Origin: a bacterium
Lineage (GTDB): Bacteria; UBA8248
NCBI GenBank assembly: GCA_965261085.1
Contig: OZ253442.1
Span: 3,616,001-3,680,000, forward strand
Reading direction: 5' to 3'
DNA: 64,000 bases
Notes under the pieces: model-generated
Seen by the model: only the letters and a program-made list of their open reading frames with translations
Database searches by the model: none
What the model was told of the DNA's origin: nothing
Part shown: positions 2,214 to 41,500 of the stretch, in pieces
Layout of the letters: the number at the start of each line of letters is the position of its first letter
How positions within the stretch are numbered: position 1 is the first letter of the stretch
Program-made: the position numbers and the translations under genes

Positions 2214-2903
2214 ATGAGAAGTGACATGGCTCGCTTTGATCACAAGACCGCTTGTAAAGTTTTTCGTGATCATTGTCGTGAAAGAGGAATTTCGTTACAG
2301 CTTATCCCCGAGAGCCGTGAACCCAATGAGCGCCGCCCCGATTTTGAGATTAGAATTGACGATAAGCACGTAGTCGTTGAAGTCAAAGCGATAGTACAGA
2401 ATAAAGAAGACAAGAGCAGCGCTGAAAAGGTGAAAGCGGGTGAACCAGTCGTATTCAGCCACACACCCGGTGATGGGTTGCTCAAAAAGTTGCAGAAAGC
2501 GAACGGGCAGCTTCGTCCGTCCGTCAATCAGGGCATTCCAAGCATCGTCTGTGTTTTCGATTAATCTTCTCGCCGGTTTTTAGATTCATACAATATTCAC
2601 GCCGGAATGTTCGGGCTGGACGCTGTCTCAATCTCGATTCCGGCAGACTACACCCAACAGCCTCGTTCCCTGGGCCACAAATCCGGCAGACGGGAAACGT
2701 TGACAAAAGAGCACAACACCTCAATTTCGGCAGTTATGGTATTTAGGGCGACAGGCCCTAATCAATATGATGCGAGGCTTTTCCACAATCACTTCGCCAA
2801 ATGTCCGCTTCCAGAAGATTGCGCTTCTCGTTTGGTGGACTGGCAGTATCGGAGTAGAAATAGAGAAGGCCGGATTGGCGATCCTTGGAATCTAATCGAA
2901 TGA
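2214..2903 (+). pseudogene. PD-(D/E)xK nuclease-like protein interrupted by one in-frame TAA (2562-2564)
   Basis: ORFs 2214-2564 and 2607-2903 are in the same frame with no other stop between them; RRPDF...VVEVK motif; lower GC. Confidence 0.65.
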
Positions 2904-3018
2904 ATCCTGGGACTTTAGATTCTGCAAGGGCGGCTCGCGAGCCGCCCCTACGAAAAAACGCGCTCTCGCGCTCTAGGTCAAACGGGCACAATTTCCCCTT
3001 CTCGGCGATGCACAATGC

Positions 3019-3044
3019 GGGCGGACACATAGGTCCGCCCCTAC
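3019..3044 (-). repeat. GTAG-type REP (inverted partner of 2068-2093)
   Basis: Exact reverse complement; a further REP lies at 2928-2951. Confidence 0.85.
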
Positions 3045-3385
3045 AAAATTTATTCATGATGGGGAATCATCACACAACATCGTCATTCCGATAGGGCAGC
3101 GAACAACACTCCTCCCTTGAGGGTCATTGTCGACCGATGAGGGAGGTTTTGCTTCGGATGAGAAACACACCGGTTAACAATTCTTCGCTCCTCGCTTGGA
3201 ATAATTCTTCTTTTCTCAGTCGGAATTCCCCCCACCGGTTCGGTTGCGGGCTTACGCCCTTACCCCACCGTCGGACTTTCCCCTCGGAAAGCCCGACCCT
3301 CAAGGGAGTGAATATATGACCACTCATGTTTCTGATGAGAGGCAGTCCCCCGCGCCTGTTCTGAACGCATCCTCCCTGAGGAAGA

Positions 3386-3445
3386 ACAATCACGGGGGGC
3401 AGGACAACCACGGGGGGCAGGACAACCACGGGGGGTTGTCCCTAC
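3386..3445 (+). repeat. 18-bp tandem repeat ending in a CTAC REP-like palindrome
   Basis: ACAA(T/C)CACGGGGGGCAGG units followed by GGACAACCACGGGGGGTTGTCCCTAC. Confidence 0.7.
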
Positions 3446-3582
3446 GTTCGAGAACGAACCCTCCCCTCCATATGCCCGGCCTTGCGGACGCAACCCTGCG
3501 AGGCCACAATGCGCTCGCCTCCTCTCAGGAGCACAGCGGCGGTTCACGAACCATTTCTCAAGAGACGAAAAAGGGAGACGCC

Positions 3583-4578
3583 ATGAGCAAGCCGTCCGTT
3601 ACGATAGTGACGACCGGGGGGACGATTTCATCCAAATACGACACGCGGGGAGGGGAGAACGTGCCTGCGGCGAGTGCGGAGGAGTTGGTCGCTTCGGTTC
3701 CTGAACTCAGCAGTGCGGCCCAAGTGCGCGTCGTCGAGCACTCGAACGTCACCAGCGACGTCTTGGAAACGTCCACGGCCTTCGGCCTTCGCGACCGCCT
3801 GCGCGGGATTCTGGCGGATGAGGAGACGGCCGGGGCGGTCATCACCCACGGGACCGCCACCATGGAGGAGACGGCCTATCTCTTAGACCTCACCCTGGGC
3901 GGCGAGAAGCCCGTGGTGATTACGGGCGCGATGCGCAACGCCGTCGCCCGGGACGCGGACGGACCCCGGAACATCTTCTACGCCGCGAAGATCGCAGCAG
4001 ACCCCGAAACGCGGGGCCGGGGCGTGCTGGTCGCGCTGGACGGCGAGATATTCGCCGCGCGGGACGTCATCAAGGTGCACAGCCAGCGGCCCCATGCCTT
4101 CGCCTCCAGAGACGGCGGGCCTATCGGCGTCGTCTCGGATGAGGGCGTCTTCTTTCACTACCGCCCCGAGCGGCGGCTTCACTTCGAGGTCGACGCCGTG
4201 AAGGAAAACGTGCAGTTCCTCACCGTGACCCAGGGGGTGAACGACCTGCTCGTGCGCGCGTGCATTCGGGAGGGAGTGGACGGCATCGTGGTGGAAGGCG
4301 TCGGCGCGGGCAACGTGAACGTTCCCTTTTATCACGCCCTGTGCGACGCGCTTGCGGCGGGAATCCCCGTGGTGATGGGGGTGCGCATCTTCGCGGGCGC
4401 GCCGCACCGCGCAAAGGCCCACGCGGGCTCGTTCCGGAGCCTGCTCGAGCGCGGAGCGATATCCGCAGGCTATCTGAGCGGAATCAAGGCCCGGATTCTG
4501 CTGATGGTGGCGCTGGCGCATACGCAGGATTTAGGAGAGTTGCAGGATATTTTCGAGCGGGCGGGCGGACGAGCGTAA
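3583..4578 (+). CDS. L-asparaginase/glutaminase family protein
   Basis: TTGGTI, HGTATMEETAY, ITGAMR motifs; start placed at ATG 3583 after GGGAG RBS. Confidence 0.93.
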   Translation: MSKPSVTIVTTGGTISSKYDTRGGENVPAASAEELVASVPELSSAAQVRVVEHSNVTSDVLETSTAFGLRDRLRGILADEETAGAVITHGTATMEETAYLLDLTLGGEKPVVITGAMRNAVARDADGPRNIFYAAKIAADPETRGRGVLVALDGEIFAARDVIKVHSQRPHAFASRDGGPIGVVSDEGVFFHYRPERRLHFEVDAVKENVQFLTVTQGVNDLLVRACIREGVDGIVVEGVGAGNVNVPFYHALCDALAAGIPVVMGVRIFAGAPHRAKAHAGSFRSLLERGAISAGYLSGIKARILLMVALAHTQDLGELQDIFERAGGRA

Positions 4579-32823: not shown

Positions 32824-33726
32824 CTAGCCGCCCAGGGCATCGCGCACGGCGGCGGGAATCTCGCGCATGTCCTCCACCACGGTGGCGCCCGCTTCCTTGA
32901 GAAGCGCCTTTTTCCGCGCGGGAGAACCCTCCCCGCGTTCGATGATGGCCGCCGCGTGGCCGAAGCTCACCCCGCTCGGGGCGGACTCGTTAATCATCCC
33001 CGCAATGAAGGCGACCACAGGCTTGGTGAAGCCGCCCTCGCCCATCAGGCGCGCCGCGTCCTCTTCTGCGCATGAACCCGGCTCGCCGAAGAGGACGACG
33101 CACTCCGTATCGGGATCGTCCTCGAACAGGGGCATGAGTTCTGAAAAAGGAGCGCCCACCATCGCGTCTCCCCCCACGCTCACGTAGGTGCTCTGGCCGA
33201 TTCCCTCCCGGCTCAGGAGCCAGCAGGTCTCGCTGCCCATTCCCCCGCTTCTGCTCAGCACGCCCACCGGCCCCTTTTGGAACAAGAGGTTCGTGACGGG
33301 CAAATCACCGCCCGTGCCGCCCATCTTCGCCCGTCCTGGGCTGATGACGCCCTGGCTGTTGGGACCCACGAGCCGCACCCCCGCGCGTCTGGCATGGGCG
33401 ATCATTAGCGCCACGTCGTGTTGGGGAACCCCTTCGGCGCATACGAGGATCATCCCGATTCCTGCTCCCGCCGCCTCGATGGCCGATTCCGCAGCCGCAG
33501 CCGCAGGCACGAACAAGACGGCGGCGTCCGCCGGATGTTCATCAAGAGCAGTGGCGAACGAATCGTAAACGGGCGCGCCGTCACAATCCTCGCCCGCGCG
33601 CCCCGGCACCACGCCGGCCACCACGCGGGTGCCGTACTTGCGCATAAACCCGGTATGGGCGCGCGCCTGCCAGCCGGTGATGCCCGCCACGACGACGCGC
33701 GTGGCCTCACCAACGAGGATGCTCAA
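32824..33726 (-). CDS. SucD-like CoA-ligase alpha subunit
   Basis: GITG, GPNSQG, SRSGG, GGD, GEPG and FGHAAA motifs; TTG start overlaps the upstream stop. Confidence 0.85.
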   Translation of the reverse strand: MSILVGEATRVVVAGITGWQARAHTGFMRKYGTRVVAGVVPGRAGEDCDGAPVYDSFATALDEHPADAAVLFVPAAAAAESAIEAAGAGIGMILVCAEGVPQHDVALMIAHARRAGVRLVGPNSQGVISPGRAKMGGTGGDLPVTNLLFQKGPVGVLSRSGGMGSETCWLLSREGIGQSTYVSVGGDAMVGAPFSELMPLFEDDPDTECVVLFGEPGSCAEEDAARLMGEGGFTKPVVAFIAGMINESAPSGVSFGHAAAIIERGEGSPARKKALLKEAGATVVEDMREIPAAVRDALGG

Positions 33727-34970
33727 GACCCGCCTCCTGTGCCCATCCACGACTCTCCGCGCTTTACCGCCTCGACCTGGGAGACGATGCGCTCGGCCGC
33801 TTCTTCGAGCGTCACCTCATCGCCCAGATACTGAAGACCCGGGCACGTTCGGGCGATCTCACGCGCCTCTTCTCCGCCTGCGCCCGCGAAACGCACGATA
33901 AAGGGGAATTCAGAGAGATCGACCCCCGTCTCCTTAACGGCGCGGGCGATGGCGCGGACCTTGAGCTGAACGCGCGAGAAACTCGTGATGTTGCTCCCCG
34001 CGAGCGCGCCCTTTACGTTCGGCATCCCGAGAATCTCTTTGGTGATCTCGAAATACTTCTCCTCCAGAGGACCCGGCGTAATGTCGAACGCCGTCGCGGG
34101 CTTTCCGCCCAGGCGCTCCATCGTGTCCAGGAGATACAAACCGCCGCCTCCCCCGCTCCACATGAGGGCGATTTCCCCGTCATCGATCTCCGTGAAGCGC
34201 GCCGTGTTGAACGGAGGTATTCTGGCGTCTATCTCCGCTACCCTCGCCTCGATGGGGGTGGGCGGACGCCAGCCGCCGCCTGAGCCTTCATCGAGCAGCG
34301 CAACCAGTTCGGGATGGCGAAACAAGGCGTCCGCGTCCAAATCCAGCACGCACGCGGCGGCTACGACTTCCTCCGCATCGCTCAGAACAAGCGGATTCAC
34401 CTCCAGAACCCGCGCCTCGGTGCGGCGGAAAAGCCCATAGCAGGCCTCCAAGGCGAGGGCCGCCCGGTAGAGGGACTCCCCGTGCACGCCGCAGGCGCGG
34501 AGAAAAGAAATACACCTCTCCTCGCTCAGGCCGTCTAAGATATCGACTTCCATCCGCTTGAGCGCTTCGGGGTTTTCCTCCAAAAGCGCCTCGATCTCCA
34601 CGCCGCCCTCGGTGCTGAACATCACGAGCGGCCCGCGCGATGCGCTGTCGAAGGCGATGGAGAGATACCATTCCTGCACGATCCCGATTTTCTCCTCGAC
34701 CAGCAGACGCTTGACGGGAAAATGATGCACCACCCGGCCCAGAAGTTCGCCGGCCGCTCTTTCCGCCTCATCGGGCGTATCCGCAGCGAGAATCGCGCCC
34801 GCCTTACCGCGCTTTCCCACCGGAACCAACGCCTTCACCATCACGGGGCCGCCGATTGCGCGCGCAGCCTCCGCCGCTTCTGCGGGCGTATGCGCCGAGC
34901 GGCCACGCGGGACGCGCACGCCCGCATCGCTTAAAAGCGTTTTGGCCTTATCCTCGAACACGCGGGGCAT
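33723..34970 (-). CDS. SucC/citrate-lyase-like ATP-grasp CoA-ligase beta subunit
   Basis: KRGKAG, EGGVEIE and EVNPL motifs; SGGGGG in place of GNGAG. Confidence 0.85.
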   Translation of the reverse strand: MPRVFEDKAKTLLSDAGVRVPRGRSAHTPAEAAEAARAIGGPVMVKALVPVGKRGKAGAILAADTPDEAERAAGELLGRVVHHFPVKRLLVEEKIGIVQEWYLSIAFDSASRGPLVMFSTEGGVEIEALLEENPEALKRMEVDILDGLSEERCISFLRACGVHGESLYRAALALEACYGLFRRTEARVLEVNPLVLSDAEEVVAAACVLDLDADALFRHPELVALLDEGSGGGWRPPTPIEARVAEIDARIPPFNTARFTEIDDGEIALMWSGGGGGLYLLDTMERLGGKPATAFDITPGPLEEKYFEITKEILGMPNVKGALAGSNITSFSRVQLKVRAIARAVKETGVDLSEFPFIVRFAGAGGEEAREIARTCPGLQYLGDEVTLEEAAERIVSQVEAVKRGESWMGTGGGS

Positions 34971-35895: not shown

Positions 35896-36549
35896 TTAGT
35901 CGTCCTCGTAAACCCCGCCGTCGCTGCTCTCCGGAAAAACTTCACGGTAAATATCCGAGAGATTTCTGCCTTCGAAAGTCCAGCGCCCACACGGATTAGC
36001 CGAGTAATTCAGGTCCAGGGCCATGTTTGTTGCAGCCGTCAAAGACATTTCCTCGCCACGAAACGACACCTTTTTCTCTCCAATCACGATCGCTTTCTCG
36101 TGTGCGCCATTCGTGGACACCAGTTCCGAACCATCTGGAATTCCCATGACCCTAAAATTCAAATTCGGTCTGTGATTGCGTCTTTTGAATTTCCTCGCAT
36201 CCTCTTTTTCTTCGGAAGACAAATCTTTATCCAAGTCACGCTCAATCTCCGGGGTTACGTCTCGGGCGTCCGGCCAGATTTTGAGAAGAGCCTCTACTTG
36301 GGAACTCCCTACTTCAAAGAACTCTCGGGAACGACTCAGTCTGTGCGGCTCGAATGCGACATGAAGGGCTTTCTCGAGTTCATCCCCCTTTTCTTCAACC
36401 TCGACCGCGATGGTGCAATCGAACGGAAGGGGAACGCCTGTCGTATACAATTCTTTCATTCTCGCCTGGAGGTCATCCCGCGTCGTCTTGCCGATCTTGA
36501 TGAGGTCGGGCATAGCCGGGTTAGTCAGAACATAAACAATGACGGACAC
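35896..36549 (-). CDS. GIY-YIG nuclease (T5orf172-like)
   Basis: VYVLTNPAMPDLIKIGKT, TGVPLPF and REFF motifs; lower GC. Confidence 0.85.
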   Translation of the reverse strand: MSVIVYVLTNPAMPDLIKIGKTTRDDLQARMKELYTTGVPLPFDCTIAVEVEEKGDELEKALHVAFEPHRLSRSREFFEVGSSQVEALLKIWPDARDVTPEIERDLDKDLSSEEKEDARKFKRRNHRPNLNFRVMGIPDGSELVSTNGAHEKAIVIGEKKVSFRGEEMSLTAATNMALDLNYSANPCGRWTFEGRNLSDIYREVFPESSDGGVYEDD

Positions 36550-36806: not shown

Positions 36807-37229
36807 ATGAATTATTGGGCATACGTTCATCCGGCTTTTCAGATTGCCACGCTTTCGCTGGGCCTGATCACTCTGGCCAACGGCTTGCGCGTGAGGCGTT
36901 CCCGAAGGGGAGGAGCCGGACCCGAGACGGCGCGCATCGCCCGCCTTCACATGCGGCTCGGGCGATGGTTCATCGCTTTTTTCTCGGCGGGCTACGCTTT
37001 GGGGCTGGGCGGGATGCGCTTCGCCCTGGAAGGGCCCCTCTACGAGACGGCGCACAGCTATTTCGCCACCCTGGCCCTGGGCTTGTTCTGGACGACGGCC
37101 TATCTGGGACGAAGACTGAGAAAAAATCTCAAAAACGACGATTTGCGGCAGATTCACTCCTATTGCGGGTTTCTGGCCGTTTTTCTCGCCCTGTTCGTCG
37201 CTTTTTTGGGGATGCGCCTACTCCCCTAG
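36807..37229 (+). CDS. Four-TM membrane protein with four His (DUF4079/cytochrome b561-like)
   Basis: HP, LH, AH and IH at or in four hydrophobic helices. Confidence 0.7.
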   Translation: MNYWAYVHPAFQIATLSLGLITLANGLRVRRSRRGGAGPETARIARLHMRLGRWFIAFFSAGYALGLGGMRFALEGPLYETAHSYFATLALGLFWTTAYLGRRLRKNLKNDDLRQIHSYCGFLAVFLALFVAFLGMRLLP

Positions 37230-37472
37230 CGTCCTCGATTCTGATAGAATTAGGAGGGAGCCGCCGCTTCAAGAAGCAGGAAAATTCTCCATGTCCTTAT
37301 TCTCGCTCTCGTCTTCATGCCCCATGATTATCATGGCCGGCAATCAGACATTTTGCCCGGCGCAAACCTTTCGTGTATCCTGCAATCCATTGGCTCGACC
37401 AACACCCAAAATTCAAGAAATAGCGGACGACGAAAATTCGTATCGCAATTATCCCTCCATGGAGGAAGAATT

Positions 37473-38426
37473 ATGCTGAGAAAATCGTGGTTCATCCTGT
37501 TCGCCGCGCTCCTCATCGCCTCGCTTTGGGCCGCCCTTCCGGCCCAGGCGGCGAACCCATGCGCCAAGAACCCGTGCGCGGCGAAAAATCCGTGCGCGTC
37601 AAATCCTTGTGCGAAAAACCCCTGCGCTAAAAATCCTTGCGCAAAAAATCCCTGTGCAAAGAACCCATGCGCCAAGAACCCCTGCGCAGGAAATCCGTGT
37701 GCTGCCAAGAACCCTTGTGCTAAAAACCCCTGTGGCGCGAACCCGTGCGCGAAGGCGGCGAAGAACCCCTGTGGCGCGAACCCATGCGCCAAGGCGGCGA
37801 AAAACCCTTGTGGCGGGAATCCGTGCAACCCTTGTGCGGGCGGCGCGGCCCGGGCGAGGAGCGAGGCCGTCATGCTCGTCGGCCAGGTCACCGGCTACAG
37901 CAAGGGCTATCTGGGCGTGCGCACCTCCGCCGGCAAGAACGTGAGCGTCCACGTGGTGAAAACCACGCTGGCGCACAGGGGGCCGAAACCGATCAGCGCA
38001 GCCTCCATCAAGGCCGGAACCCGGGTGAACATCTCCACCCAGGCCAGGGGCGGCTACTACAAGGCGAACTTCATCTACGCCCTCGTAAGCGGCGGAGGTA
38101 ATCCCTGCGGCGCCAACCCCTGTGGCGGTAACCCCTGCGCCAAAAATCCCTGCGCCGGCAACCCTTGCGCGAAGACCGCCAAGAACCCTTGCGGGGGAAA
38201 CCCCTGCGCAGCGAAAAATCCTTGCGGGGCCAATCCATGCGCCAAGAAAAACCCGTGCGGCGCAAACCCCTGCGCAGCCAAGAACCCTTGCGCCAGTAAC
38301 CCGTGCGCGAAAAAAAATCCGTGTGGTGGGAACCCTTGCGCGAAAAACCCGTGCGCCGCCAAGAATCCTTGTGCGGCGAAGAATCCGTGCGCCAAGAATC
38401 CTTGCGCTCCGGGAGGGAAAAAATAG
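37473..38426 (+). CDS. Exported Cys-rich protein: about 18 + about 19 NPC repeats flanking a small beta-rich domain
   Basis: GGAGG RBS; signal peptide ending AQA; synonymous codon variation between repeats. Confidence 0.85.
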   Translation: MLRKSWFILFAALLIASLWAALPAQAANPCAKNPCAAKNPCASNPCAKNPCAKNPCAKNPCAKNPCAKNPCAGNPCAAKNPCAKNPCGANPCAKAAKNPCGANPCAKAAKNPCGGNPCNPCAGGAARARSEAVMLVGQVTGYSKGYLGVRTSAGKNVSVHVVKTTLAHRGPKPISAASIKAGTRVNISTQARGGYYKANFIYALVSGGGNPCGANPCGGNPCAKNPCAGNPCAKTAKNPCGGNPCAAKNPCGANPCAKKNPCGANPCAAKNPCASNPCAKKNPCGGNPCAKNPCAAKNPCAAKNPCAKNPCAPGGKK

Positions 38427-38500
38427 AAATGCCTCCACGCGCGGTGCGTGGAGTTTGACTTTTCTTGAAGTCGGATTTTTCCATATCCTGCAAGGAGAAA

Positions 38501-39358
38501 ATGATGAAGACAGCAAAGTGGGGCATCATTCTCGCCGTGGCCTTAGGCCTGATGATTCCATCGGCCGCCCAGGCGGCGGAAAAGAAGGCGACTATCACGC
38601 CGCCGCCCTTTTTCTTCACCCAGCAACGCGACGCCAGCGTGAAGGACTCCGTCACCCGGGGCAAGAAAATCTTCAGAGACATAGGCTGCGTGGGCTGCCA
38701 CCCCCGGGGCCGCACCGTCGGCGGCACCGCCGTGGACATCATGGGCTTCAGGAACCCGGTGCCCATTCCCACCCTCATGGGAGCGGCGGATCACTTCCCG
38801 CGCCTGAGTCCGGCAAGCCAGGTGGTGAACGTCGGGCAGTTCAACGACCTTTGCTCCACGACGTTCATCGGCAATCCGCCCATGGACCCCTATTCCCAGA
38901 GATACAAGGACCTCGAATCCTACGTGGTTTCGCTCTCCCGCGCGCGATACAAGCGGATGCTCGACTGGGAGGCGAAGCGCAAGGCGTTCATGAAGACGGT
39001 GCAGCCCGCGGCCGGTGGGGGGAACCCCTGCGGAGCCAACCCCTGCGCAGCCAAGAACCCTTGCGGGGGTAATCCTTGCGCCAAGAATCCATGCGCGGCG
39101 AAGAATCCCTGCGCCGCCAAGAACCCGTGCGCGTCAAAAAACCCCTGCGCGGGGATAAATCCTTGCGCCAAAAATCCGTGCGCGGCTAAGAATCCCTGTG
39201 CGGCCAAAAATCCTTGTGCGGCGAAGAACCCCTGCGCTGCCAAAAATCCTTGTGCGAAGAACCCTTGCGCTGCGAAAAACCCCTGCGCTAAGAATCCTTG
39301 CGCGAAAAACCCGTGCGCGGCAAAGAATCCGTGCGCAAAGAATCCATGCAAGAAATAA
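38501..39358 (+). CDS. Exported monohaem cytochrome c (SoxA/TsdA-like pattern) with about 20 C-terminal NPC repeats
   Basis: Signal peptide; CVGCH; HFPRL...FNDLC...S..YKDLESYV. Confidence 0.85.
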   Translation: MMKTAKWGIILAVALGLMIPSAAQAAEKKATITPPPFFFTQQRDASVKDSVTRGKKIFRDIGCVGCHPRGRTVGGTAVDIMGFRNPVPIPTLMGAADHFPRLSPASQVVNVGQFNDLCSTTFIGNPPMDPYSQRYKDLESYVVSLSRARYKRMLDWEAKRKAFMKTVQPAAGGGNPCGANPCAAKNPCGGNPCAKNPCAAKNPCAAKNPCASKNPCAGINPCAKNPCAAKNPCAAKNPCAAKNPCAAKNPCAKNPCAAKNPCAKNPCAKNPCAAKNPCAKNPCKK

Positions 39359-39496
39359 TGGAGGCTTAGCCGACATATTCGGATGAGCATCCGGCGCGCG
39401 CGCGTTTGAGACACCGCCTCCCCGCATCGATCGGGGATGGCGGAGTCTCCGCGCCTGCGTCCCATATCGACGAGACCGATGAAAGAGGACGGGAGA

Positions 39497-40297
39497 ATGA
39501 AGTTTCTGAAGAAAAGGGGGTTGTGGATCGTCGTGGCTCTCGCGTGGAGCCTCATCGCGCCCGCCGGTTCTCTTGCCGCCAAGAGAATACCTCCCAAGAC
39601 CGAGACGGCGAAGCAAAACGGCGCGGACTACTGGCTGGGCAAGGAAATCTATGAGGAAATCTGTTTTTCCTGCCACGGCAGCAAGGGTGACGGGAAGGGC
39701 CCTAGCTGGCGGAGTTCGAGGCCGAGACCGCAGGTGTTCATCAGCCCCTACATGAGGCGCATGACGGATGACTACATCTTCTCCATCGTGAAGTTCGGCA
39801 AGATGAATGTCTTGAAAAACCAGACGAAGGGCCACAAGATAAAAAACGGCGTCCCCACCGCCATGCCCTCGTTCGGCGAAGTGCTCGAAGACGACCAGAT
39901 AAGAAAGCTCATCAAATGGGAGCGCGGCTTCACGAGCGGCAAACAGCCCAAGGATGAGGAGTCGAAAGGGATCTTCATCGACGCCTGCTCCCAGTGCCAC
40001 GGCAAACAGGGCTTCGGCAACGGAATCCGTCCCGTGGAGGATCAGGACCCCGAAAAACCGTTCATCAGCCACATTCAGCCGCCGCCGATGAACTATCACC
40101 TAAAAGAGCAGATGGCGCGCTTTGACGACGAATTCCTCTTCTGGCTCATCAAGTTCGGCCGCATCGACGTCACCGAGATGAAGAAGTTCGACTTCATGAA
40201 GGCCTACGGCCACGTGCTGAGCGATGAGGAGATATGGTCGGTCGTCCAGTATGTCCGCGAAACGTTCATCGACGGCAAGCCGAGAAAGAAGAAATAG
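39497..40297 (+). CDS. Exported dihaem cytochrome c
   Basis: Signal peptide; CFSCHG..G.G.G and CSQCHG; AMPSF and FMKAY distal-Met segments. Confidence 0.9.
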   Translation: MKFLKKRGLWIVVALAWSLIAPAGSLAAKRIPPKTETAKQNGADYWLGKEIYEEICFSCHGSKGDGKGPSWRSSRPRPQVFISPYMRRMTDDYIFSIVKFGKMNVLKNQTKGHKIKNGVPTAMPSFGEVLEDDQIRKLIKWERGFTSGKQPKDEESKGIFIDACSQCHGKQGFGNGIRPVEDQDPEKPFISHIQPPPMNYHLKEQMARFDDEFLFWLIKFGRIDVTEMKKFDFMKAYGHVLSDEEIWSVVQYVRETFIDGKPRKKK

Positions 40298-40346: not shown

Positions 40347-40773
40347 ATGCGCTTGTGGAGTCTTCACCCGAAATATATCGACGCCAGGGGCCTCGTCGCC
40401 CTGTGGAGAGAAGGCCTCCTCGCCCAGGCGGTTCTCACGGCCAAGACGCGCGGCTACCGCCGCCATCCCCAATTGCTTCGCTTTCACTCAGGCGGCAGAC
40501 CCGCCGCCTTCATCGCCGAATACTTAAGGGCCGTACACGCGGAATCACTCGCACGGGGCTACCGCTTCGACGTAAACAAGACAGGTTGCAGCCGCACTTC
40601 CTCAAAGCTGGAAGTAACAAGCGGCCAGCTCGATTTCGAATGGGCTCATCTCATGAAAAAGCTGGAAACCCGTGCGCCGGAACTACATGAGAGATTGATG
40701 GCGACGGCCTCCCCCCAATCTCATCCCCTGTTCCGCAACGCCCGGCGGGGTTGCGGACTGGGAGCGGCCGTAA
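40347..40773 (+). CDS. Pyrimidine-dimer DNA glycosylase/endonuclease V-like protein with an apparent C-terminal frameshift
   Basis: MRLWSLHPKY..GLVALWRE, HPQL.RF; the typical end PGGVADWERP* lies in another frame. Confidence 0.8.
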
Positions 40774-40860
40774 GTCTCTATTTCAGGACAAGACGAGGCG
40801 CTCGCTTTATGAGAAAATACGCGCGTTGCCCGAAACGTAAGTTCCCTGAGGAGTTTCATC

Positions 40861-41172
40861 ATGAGTCTGAACGTCGAAGCATCGCGAGAGGAGGTCGCCG
40901 CCTTTTGTGAGCGCTGGCAGGTTACACAACTCGCCATTTTCGGCTCGGCGCTGCGGGAAGATTTCGGGCCCGATAGCGACGTAGACCTTCTCGTGAGCTT
41001 CGAAGACGGCGCGCGCCATACGCTCTTTGACATGCACTACATGGAGGAGGAGCTTAAAACGATATTCGGGCGTGAGGTCGATCTCATTGAGCGCGTAGGG
41101 GTCGAACGAAGCCGAAACCACATCCGCCGCGAAGCCATCCTCCAATCCGCCGAGACGATTTATGCGGCGTGA
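40861..41172 (+). CDS. Minimal nucleotidyltransferase (MntA-like antitoxin)
   Basis: FGSALREDFGPDSDVDLL and GREVDL motifs. Confidence 0.9.
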   Translation: MSLNVEASREEVAAFCERWQVTQLAIFGSALREDFGPDSDVDLLVSFEDGARHTLFDMHYMEEELKTIFGREVDLIERVGVERSRNHIRREAILQSAETIYAA

Positions 41173-41500
41173 CGACGCCTGGCTGGTCGACATGTTACAG
41201 GCCGCGAGAGAGGCGGTGGAGTTCGCGAACGGACTGAGCTTCGCGGAATTCGAACAAAACCGCATGGTGCAACTCGCGATCCTGAAAGCTATGGAAATCG
41301 TAGGAGAAGCCGCCTCCCACGTCGGTGCCGACGCACGAGAAGCCTATTCCGAAATTCCCTGGCCTGAAATCGTCGGTATGCGCAATCGTCTCGTGCATGG
41401 ATATTTCAACGTCAATCTGAAGCGTGTGTGGGAAACCGTCCAACAGGACATCCCCCGGCTTATTTCACAACTCGAACGGCTCGCACCGCCGGAGTCTTAG
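41162..41500 (+). CDS. HepT/DUF86 HEPN ribonuclease toxin
   Basis: IVGEAA, IPW and MRNRLVHGY (RX4H) motifs. Confidence 0.9.
   Translation: MRRDDAWLVDMLQAAREAVEFANGLSFAEFEQNRMVQLAILKAMEIVGEAASHVGADAREAYSEIPWPEIVGMRNRLVHGYFNVNLKRVWETVQQDIPRLISQLERLAPPES

Follow-up and report, generated by a model that had tools for sequence, protein, structure and literature searches.

What would a periplasmic cytochrome do with twenty cysteines strung along its own C-terminus? The question is raised by a gene in a 64,000-nucleotide stretch of bacterial DNA (lineage UBA8248; assembly GCA_965261085.1, contig OZ253442.1, positions 3,616,001 to 3,680,000 of the forward strand; hereafter the window, whose first letter is position 1), which comes from a 4.27-Mb genome assembled as one contig, with 58.7% G+C and 96% completeness. 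The gene encodes a c-type cytochrome fused to a tail of Asn-Pro-Cys (NPC) units and lies in a conserved four-gene module, and we consider the exported protein probably part of an undescribed periplasmic thiol redox system. Our best reading, to which we give roughly even odds (about 0.5), is that a haem-thiolate ligated by His67 and Cys118 would make or break sulfur–sulfur (S–S) bonds on poly-cysteine arms and would be wired to the membrane.

The open reading frame (ORF) runs from 38465 to 39358 on the plus strand in the ORF list and probably starts at ATG 38501 (MMKTAKW...), with AGGAG eight bases before it. Its 285-residue product contains a single CVGCH motif (residues 63–67, nucleotides 38687–38701), followed by AADHFPRL...VVNVGQFNDLC, then MDPYSQRYKDLESYV, and a GGG linker (residues 172–174); the cysteine of FNDLC, Cys118, is the sole further cysteine in the conserved core. 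A first-pass annotation, made from the sequence alone, had recognised the CVGCH cytochrome, FNDLC, the linker and about 20 NPC units, all of which we find, the count being exactly 20 (residues 175–283) before a C-terminal KK. All 20 tail cysteines lie within NPC units, at a spacing of six residues in eleven cases and five in eight, and the 112-residue tail (A27 N20 P20 C20 K18 G5 S1 I1) has no acidic residue. Tandem Repeats Finder gives 65–87% identity for the arrays at the DNA level and the NPC codons are mixed and synonymous (Asn AAC 9, AAT 11; Pro CCC 7, CCT 7, CCG 4, CCA 2), which argues that the peptide is what is conserved, rather than the arrays being a fresh DNA duplication. The terminal two or three units are invariant in an alignment of 17 relatives, and only two frames in the whole genome contain at least three NPC, namely the cytochrome gene (20) and its upstream neighbour (37). 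A pentapeptide-repeat β-helix was considered for the arms and dropped by eye, since five- and six-residue units are mixed and the central hydrophobic residue is absent. The GC-rich arrays give rise to long ORFs that are spurious, both on the opposite strand and in the remaining frames (37317–39600 in the window, all frames), and among the database relatives P0001, P0027, P0035, P0040 and P0044 are frameshifted gene calls, with the tail or half the domain in the wrong frame.

A word-indexed search found 37 relatives at 60–76% identity, the few named ones being Nitrospinota or Nitrospinae, and when 1.84 billion representatives were searched exhaustively with phmmer, 121 proteins scored E≤1e-3. 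Cytochromes of the wider family, which are among the 121, are secreted proteins of 130–270 residues that match the window domain over residues ~60–149 (E 7.7e-15 to 1e-9), and some of them pass the Pfam model PF21342, SoxA-TsdA_cyt-c (P0046 90 bits, P0047 49.7, P0053 49; cut-off 27); of 36 members of a joint alignment, 24 match PF21342 at E≤0.01. The similarity to SoxA and TsdA proposed in the first-pass annotation stands for the joint family profile, which reaches SoxA (1h31_A, 1.6e-11), the dihaem peroxidase 3o5c (2.4e-9) and TsdA (4wq7, 1.1e-7; one stretch, whole N-terminal domain). An AlphaFold model from the joint alignment (predicted local distance difference test, pLDDT, 91.8) brings seven TsdA entries to the top in Foldseek (E 1.4e-3, probability 1.0). 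The closest structural match of the domain is the non-catalytic haem-1 domain of SoxA (1h31_A residues 53–144), which the M-x-x-x-C and FP[KR] pattern of the family also resembles. In a plain sequence search the best solved relative of the window protein is the C-terminal haem domain of 3o5c (E 0.0013, residues 24–86 only), and NCBIfam holds no useful model for it, that of SoxA being unmatched. Judged from these profiles, the haem domain is a divergent branch of the superfamily of SoxA, TsdA and the peroxidase C-terminal domain, nearest to its Cys-ligated members and linked to them transitively; by the same measure the window protein belongs to PF21342 only transitively.

The invariant positions of the joint alignment are CxxCH, two glycines, one proline and Cys118 only, the last present in 36 of 36 relatives. 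Hidden Markov model alignment places Cys118 on the ligand cysteines of TsdA (QRIGDCFERS) and SoxA (QMINACRTS) and on the ligand methionine of the peroxidase (AVNTM). In six of the 33 gene-bearing genomes of the phylum an in-frame TGA stands exactly at this position (...IGIMNDL-TGA-NTVFLGREPMDPNSQEYMDLYAYVASLTP...), after which the frame is open and conserved and ends in an NPC tail; with TGA translated as selenocysteine (Sec, U), the L060 product shares 52% identity with the window protein, U120 falling on C118. SelB above cut-off and a tRNA-Sec (72–76 bits) were found in three of the four Sec-form genomes tested (G012, G007 and G002), the fourth being 67% complete. In G012 the tRNA-SeC gene (anticodon TCA, L061:4964–5060, minus strand) shares the locus of the cytochrome (domain match 2610–3047) and dihaem (3337–4095) genes and lies downstream of both. 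The database proteins P0038, P0039, P0041, P0045, P0070, P0077 and P0114 end one residue before the position of Cys118 and P0089 starts just after it, which is typical gene-caller behaviour at a Sec codon. In a tree without the partial L063, L064 and L065, the four complete putative Sec forms group together (98/95) as the sister clade of the 25 Cys forms. Cys/Sec pairs among homologues flag catalytic redox residues, and the apparent exchange thus marks residue 118 as redox-catalytic. Alignment, invariance and exchange together make it very likely that Cys118 is the reactive residue and the distal haem ligand, the latter as the first-pass annotation had suggested, with iron ligation itself a prediction from these data, and in the sister lineage the TGA cytochromes may be c-type cytochromes with selenocysteine as iron ligand. 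About 15 nt past the UGA begins a hairpin whose loop contains GU; the bases of the hairpin are identical in all loci, so that it offers no covariation. In G007 a second in-frame TGA occurs in the linker before the NPC tail (L059 about 3300–3320; ...LMKKLSR-TGA-GGGKGNPC...); it may encode another Sec, genuinely end translation and so leave the protein without a tail, or stem from a faulty assembly.

The cytochrome gene is accompanied by genes for a DUF4079 membrane protein, an NPC/OB-fold protein and a dihaem cytochrome c (Table 1). A scan of species-representative genomes found 24 related loci, from Nitrospinota, Nitrospinaceae, one Tectomicrobia and metagenome-assembled genomes. The cytochrome carries NPC arrays in all 24 (3 to 31 units), a DUF4079 gene stands beside it in 22 and a dihaem c gene follows it in 22. 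Eleven of the 24 loci also have a separate NPC/OB gene; in the other 13, without exception, the cytochrome bears a further array at its N-terminus. Of the 51 genomes of the phylum that were scanned, 33 contain the domain; the figure is 19 of 29 among those of high quality, and 10 of 15 genera are represented. One orthologue (L025:3042–3743) has CVGGH for CVGCH and so has lost the second haem-binding cysteine, through a sequencing error or as a decaying copy.

Two of the partners look like electron carriers. The DUF4079 match of the membrane protein is above the Pfam cut-off, matches to Cytochrom_B561 and Ni_hydr_CYTB are weak and a PDB sequence search gave zero matches; each predicted helix contributes one of the histidines H8, H48, H83 and H117, all four of which are unchanged in 23 of 23 orthologues, and we infer that the protein binds haem. 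The dihaem protein (Pfam Cytochrome_CBB3 3e-22, Cytochrom_C 5.3e-16; best solved relative 6h5l_B, 1.6e-8) is likely the electron partner of the cytochrome. In the NPC/OB protein the OB domain alone matched zero Pfam families and gave low-score leads only in the ESM Atlas (0.82–0.84, one cluster named DUF5666-like); the OB match is of a generic kind, and domains of tRNA synthetase and single-stranded DNA-binding protein (SSB) score higher. An NCBIfam match of the neighbour to 'Cys-every-fifth RiPP CefA' (E 0.6) was discarded as noise. The terminator-like hairpin between the NPC/OB and cytochrome genes could set a difference in their expression, with terminator and promoter scan counts at chance level in the region (7 terminator-like sites, 6.9 in shuffles). 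Metatranscriptome contigs from four runs in two studies, 95–99% alike, span 38490–39159 and parts of the other three genes, a weak sign of expression that is no proof of transcription; gaps in the coverage carry no meaning.

NPC arms are also found well beyond this module. When longer proteins were searched with the tail only, 719 of 3152 candidates scored E≤1e-3, and domains were read for the best 120: of these best 120 of 719, 52 carry PF21342 and 13 more belong to the Nitrospinota-type subfamily, while cytochrome P460 (PF16694) accounts for nine, YHS for six, PF10517 (DM13) for one and PF03150, as the sole family, for one. Two of the six YHS proteins are named 'YHS domain-containing (seleno)protein' in a source, and the remainder of the best 120 match no Pfam family; this group includes OB-fold proteins that resemble the neighbour, one of them named CusF in a source. 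Among gammaproteobacterial carriers, those of Motiliproteus, Zobellella, Halomonas and Gallionella show the M-x-x-x-C ligand motif as well and bear arrays at either end. The NPC arm is a widespread module, most often but not exclusively attached to the putatively Cys-ligated cytochrome type.

In the wider family, many of the tail-less members (L029–L058, P0048–P0105) have Met-rich segments (7–13% Met) and lipoprotein-like signal peptides. An alignment of 22 proteins proved too diverse for the locus search, and a nine-sequence subset was used; 20 of 30 loci were viewed and 59 of 101 ORFs scanned, the ORFs coming from 18 metagenome loci. The commonest neighbour is a class I cytochrome with two or three haems, after the gene in at least 13 of 20 loci. 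Further along there is often a CarboxypepD_reg protein and DUF3179, and in some loci extracytoplasmic function (ECF) sigma/anti-sigma and TonB/ExbD genes upstream. Neither sulfur-oxidation nor metal-resistance genes occur among the 59 scanned neighbour ORFs, so context does not settle the substrate.

How might these parts work together? Haem ligation, the chemistry of the arms and its direction, and the physiological role are what we infer from the observations above. The haem of the periplasmic cytochrome would be ligated by His67 and Cys118, in the manner of the Cys-ligated haems of SoxA and TsdA, and the protein carries a disordered arm of 20 cysteines, with a second arm-bearing OB-fold protein contributing 37, in one conserved module of NPC/OB protein, cytochrome, dihaem c and four-helix b561-like membrane protein. 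Haem-bound Cys118 would exchange S–S bonds with the arm cysteines, or with sulfur or oxidant adducts on the arms, which would be the thiol-exchange chemistry of SoxAX acting on the SoxY arm; the tail is a plausible built-in substrate arm. Electrons would travel by way of the dihaem c and then the b561-like membrane protein. Protein thiol/disulfide couples cover a range of potentials that includes −185 mV. This is the potential given for the His/Cys haem of TsdA in PMC6879331. In the oxidative direction electrons from thiols or bound sulfur would enter the respiratory chain, which would be thermodynamically easy; in the reductive direction an oxidised arm would be regenerated, mirroring the MrpX/MsrPQ system described below and compatible with the Met-rich variants. 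We slightly favour a regenerable poly-thiol buffer against oxidants or electrophiles over a sulfur carrier. More tentatively, the operon may be a self-contained periplasmic 'poly-thiol battery', in which the Cys or Sec iron ligand would act as catalytic nucleophile, up to 57 thiols per gene pair would be charged and discharged through S–S or Se–S exchange, and the dihaem c and a dihaem b561-like protein would provide the link to the membrane.

Several observations weigh against the haem-thiolate reading. The window protein itself matches zero Pfam families at E≤1, PF03150 included, and a profile of the NPC subfamily only reaches neither SoxA nor TsdA at E≤1, its best match being the peroxidase 3o5c (0.0088); the proposed similarity is to that extent weaker, and the link runs via intermediate relatives. 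Of the close relatives, P0003, P0014 and P0024 score ~13 bits on PF21342 (E 0.06–0.12) and P0006 and P0028 match nothing. The structure model contains no haem, access of the arm to the haem is an assumption, and the pocket differs, since the arginine equivalent to Arg119 is absent throughout the alignment. Genes for thioredoxin, CcdA, DsbD and stress sigma factors are absent beside the operon in the window. The occurrence of the arms on P460, YHS, DM13 and OB-fold proteins suggests that their role may be generic and not tied to this haem. Finally, the hairpin past the UGA has z-scores of −1.0 to −1.8 relative to shuffles and the Cys form folds similarly there, so a selenocysteine insertion sequence (SECIS) is not demonstrated.

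The alternative that survives best, unlikely in our view, is that the NPC arms bind soft metals (Cu(I), Ag, Hg, Cd, As(III)) as a metallothionein-like buffer of the periplasm, with the cytochromes only setting the metal/thiol redox state or having no part in what the arms do. Against this, the arms lack CxC and CxxC, their cysteines being five to six residues apart with proline between them, and the OB match of the neighbour is the generic one described above. Nor is there a metal efflux, regulator or resistance gene in the operon or its flanks, or a metal gene among the 59 neighbour ORFs from the 18 metagenome loci of the wider family. A presumed catalytic Cys/Sec residue and two electron carriers also favour redox catalysis over binding alone.

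That the cytochrome is a true thiosulfate enzyme of SoxA/TsdA type, conjugating thiosulfate to its own tail cysteines as a multivalent SoxY, we regard as improbable. The domain is homologous to SoxA and TsdA with the ligand cysteine aligned, and a conserved Cys unit closes the arm at its C-terminus, where SoxY also has a cysteine. There is a precedent in SoxAX, described in PMC4423706 as joining thiosulfate to a carrier cysteine. The same source gives Arg119 as invariant in TsdA and SoxA and as the residue with the largest kinetic effect (PMC4423706). In the family studied here the Arg119 column, four residues before the ligand Cys, holds Met in 24, Phe in 10, Gln in one and Ile in one of the 36 members, thus Met or Phe in 34 and Arg in none (0/36); the window protein has Phe114 there, and Arg109 and Ser127 of the thiosulfate site are also not conserved. 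The domain is, moreover, most like the non-catalytic haem-1 domain of SoxA. The first-pass annotation had correctly found no sox genes in the 64-kb window, and the absence extends to the whole of the 96% complete genome, with zero matches to SoxY (PF13501) and SoxB (TIGR04486), and a best score of 15.6 bits for the SoxA equivalog TIGR04484 (cut-off 110), so that nothing would unload the arms. With the arginine missing and SoxY- or SoxZ-type partners and SoxB absent, the evidence argues that the cytochrome is not a Sox or Tsd enzyme, and the SoxA/TsdA-type catalysis with a SoxY-like arm that had been proposed for it is not borne out.

Highly improbable is an ordinary His/Met electron-transfer cytochrome (ligand Met128 or Met153) with arms serving as spacer, disulfide cross-linking anchor or low-complexity ballast, since its supports, namely the invariance of both methionines within the NPC subfamily, a sequence-closest solved chain that is the His/Met domain of a dihaem peroxidase, and arms of 3 to 31 units as expected of a loosely constrained region, are met by the replacement of Met128 by Leu in 21 of 36 wider-family members (and of His98 by Thr, Arg or Ser in many) while Cys118 is invariant, by an apparent Cys-to-Sec exchange in six genomes for which a bystander residue gives no rationale, by NPC identity kept through synonymous codon change with the last units invariant, and by the strict co-occurrence of arms and operon.

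Table 1. Coordinates of the cytochrome gene, its operon partners and the in-frame TGA codons of sister-lineage homologues.
Feature	Position	Strand	Basis or remark
Signal peptide of cytochrome (MMKTAKWGIILAVALGLMIPSAAQA)	38501..38575	+	Read from sequence; cleavage after AQA judged by eye
Monohaem c-type cytochrome domain, SoxA/TsdA type; C-terminal end a long basic helix	38576..39013	+	
Cys118 codon, predicted distal haem ligand and catalytic residue	38852..38854	+	Alignment, invariance, TGA in 6 sister genomes
GGG linker, 20-unit NPC tail (39023–39349), KK, stop	39014..39358	+	
140-residue four-helix membrane protein, DUF4079 / cytochrome b561-like, putative dihaem b transmembrane electron carrier	36807..37229	+	Pfam, 2.5e-13
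Secreted NPC-array/OB-fold/NPC-array protein, 37 NPC units	37473..38426	+	
N-terminal array of NPC/OB protein, 18 units	37554–37835		
OB domain of NPC/OB protein	37836–38099		
C-terminal array of NPC/OB protein, 19 units	38100–38405		
Terminator-like hairpin then TTTGACTTTT (T-rich), between NPC/OB and cytochrome genes	38433..38453	+	Consensus match only
Secreted dihaem class I cytochrome c, CxxCH at residues 56 and 164	39497..40297	+	Pfam; start codon picked by eye
TGA at Cys118 position in sister genomes	L059:3146; L060:3164; L061:2883; L062 (minus strand, segment 1279–1398); L063/L064; L065		

The operon is flanked by unrelated genes, a T5orf172-domain gene (35896–36549, minus strand) and a pyrimidine-dimer DNA glycosylase gene (40347–40910, plus strand). 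In 14 of the 24 related loci the glycosylase gene comes after the dihaem gene, and in four T5orf172 comes ahead of the operon, suggesting an old neighbourhood. Two small overlapping ORFs at 40861–41500 (plus strand) bear a by-eye likeness to a nucleotidyltransferase/HEPN (MNT/HepT) toxin-antitoxin pair. At 32824–34970 (minus strand), adjoining genes have coenzyme A (CoA)-ligase and ATP-grasp_2 domains with weak citrate-binding matches; they resemble succinyl-CoA synthetase or ATP-citrate lyase, which would be compatible with a reductive tricarboxylic acid (TCA) cycle autotroph.

A full-text search for the repeat strings found no paper describing NPC arms or the module, and DUF4079 came up in one paper, where its mention looks incidental. 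Searches of the literature for selenocysteine with SoxA or haem ligands found no Sec-ligated c-type cytochrome; native Sec-ligated haem is reported for a P450 in a preprint (PMC11703216). Four things are new here: a divergent Nitrospinota subfamily that scores under the Pfam cut-off, the fixed module of four genes in which it occurs together with a b561-like membrane protein, the absence of the arginine, and the division into sister clades of Cys and putative Sec forms. It is rare for a c-type haem to have a Cys ligand, and haems of this type are so far known for S–S bond catalysis in few enzymes, for example SoxAX, TsdA and MccSep. Here such a haem would be fused to a long arm of reactive thiols, and the conserved module of four genes to which it belongs includes electron carriers of its own. 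The phylum concerned is one of nitrite oxidisers from the sea and lacks a Sox system. In other phyla the arm recurs on periplasmic proteins of haem and metal type, which number in the hundreds (719 matches). If the arms are haem-thiolate substrates, this would be a periplasmic system of a new type, for thiol redox chemistry or scavenging, and the putative Sec variants at the ligand position would be a natural experiment in haem-chalcogenate chemistry. Should the poly-thiol battery be true, nitrite-oxidising Nitrospinota and many other bacteria would possess an undescribed regenerable oxidant, electrophile or sulfur buffer, and the sister lineage would provide the first c-type cytochromes in nature whose iron is ligated by a selenolate.

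Comparison with known systems places the cytochrome nearest to the N-terminal haem-1 domain of SoxA from Rhodovulum sulfidophilum (1h31), of which it would be a single-haem-domain relative that lacks the catalytic-site arginines, falls below the Pfam and NCBIfam cut-offs and belongs to a genome without SoxY and SoxB. Compared with SoxAX as a complex, it has neither a SoxX partner nor SoxYZ, and the arm is fused to the enzyme and offers 20 thiols instead of one. TsdA of Allochromatium vinosum (4wq7) has a second fused haem domain and no cysteine arm, and its thiosulfate-site residues Arg109, Arg119 and Ser127 are not conserved in the window family. In the C-terminal domain of the dihaem peroxidases (Shewanella BccP, 3o5c) the ligand is Met, whereas it is predicted to be Cys or Sec here, and with its one CxxCH the window protein lacks the peroxidatic N-terminal haem domain of the dihaem peroxidase/MauG family (PF03150).

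In principle only, the module is also like the MrpX/MsrP/MsrQ system: both would combine a secreted and disordered sulfur-rich polypeptide, a periplasmic redox enzyme able to restore it and a haem b membrane protein supplying the electrons, MsrQ being a b-haem protein. According to PMC4436054, MrpX is the sacrificial sulfur-rich peptide of the hypochlorite-scavenging MrpX/MsrP(YedY)/MsrQ system of Azospira suillum. There is no homology between the two, however: the arms here are of cysteine and not methionine, the enzyme is a putative haem-thiolate cytochrome and not a molybdoenzyme, DUF4079 is not MsrQ, and no SigF/NrsF genes lie beside the window operon. Selenium is also used by MccSep, a polysulfide reductase from Geobacter sulfurreducens that is a selenoprotein with five haems; in it a Cys-ligated haem with a nearby Sec cleaves S–S bonds (PMC13510729). 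The two would share a periplasmic Cys-ligated c-type haem and selenium, and they differ in fold and haem number; in MccSep the Sec lies beside the Cys-ligated haem, while in the sister lineage of the window cytochrome the putative Sec codon replaces that of the predicted ligand cysteine itself.

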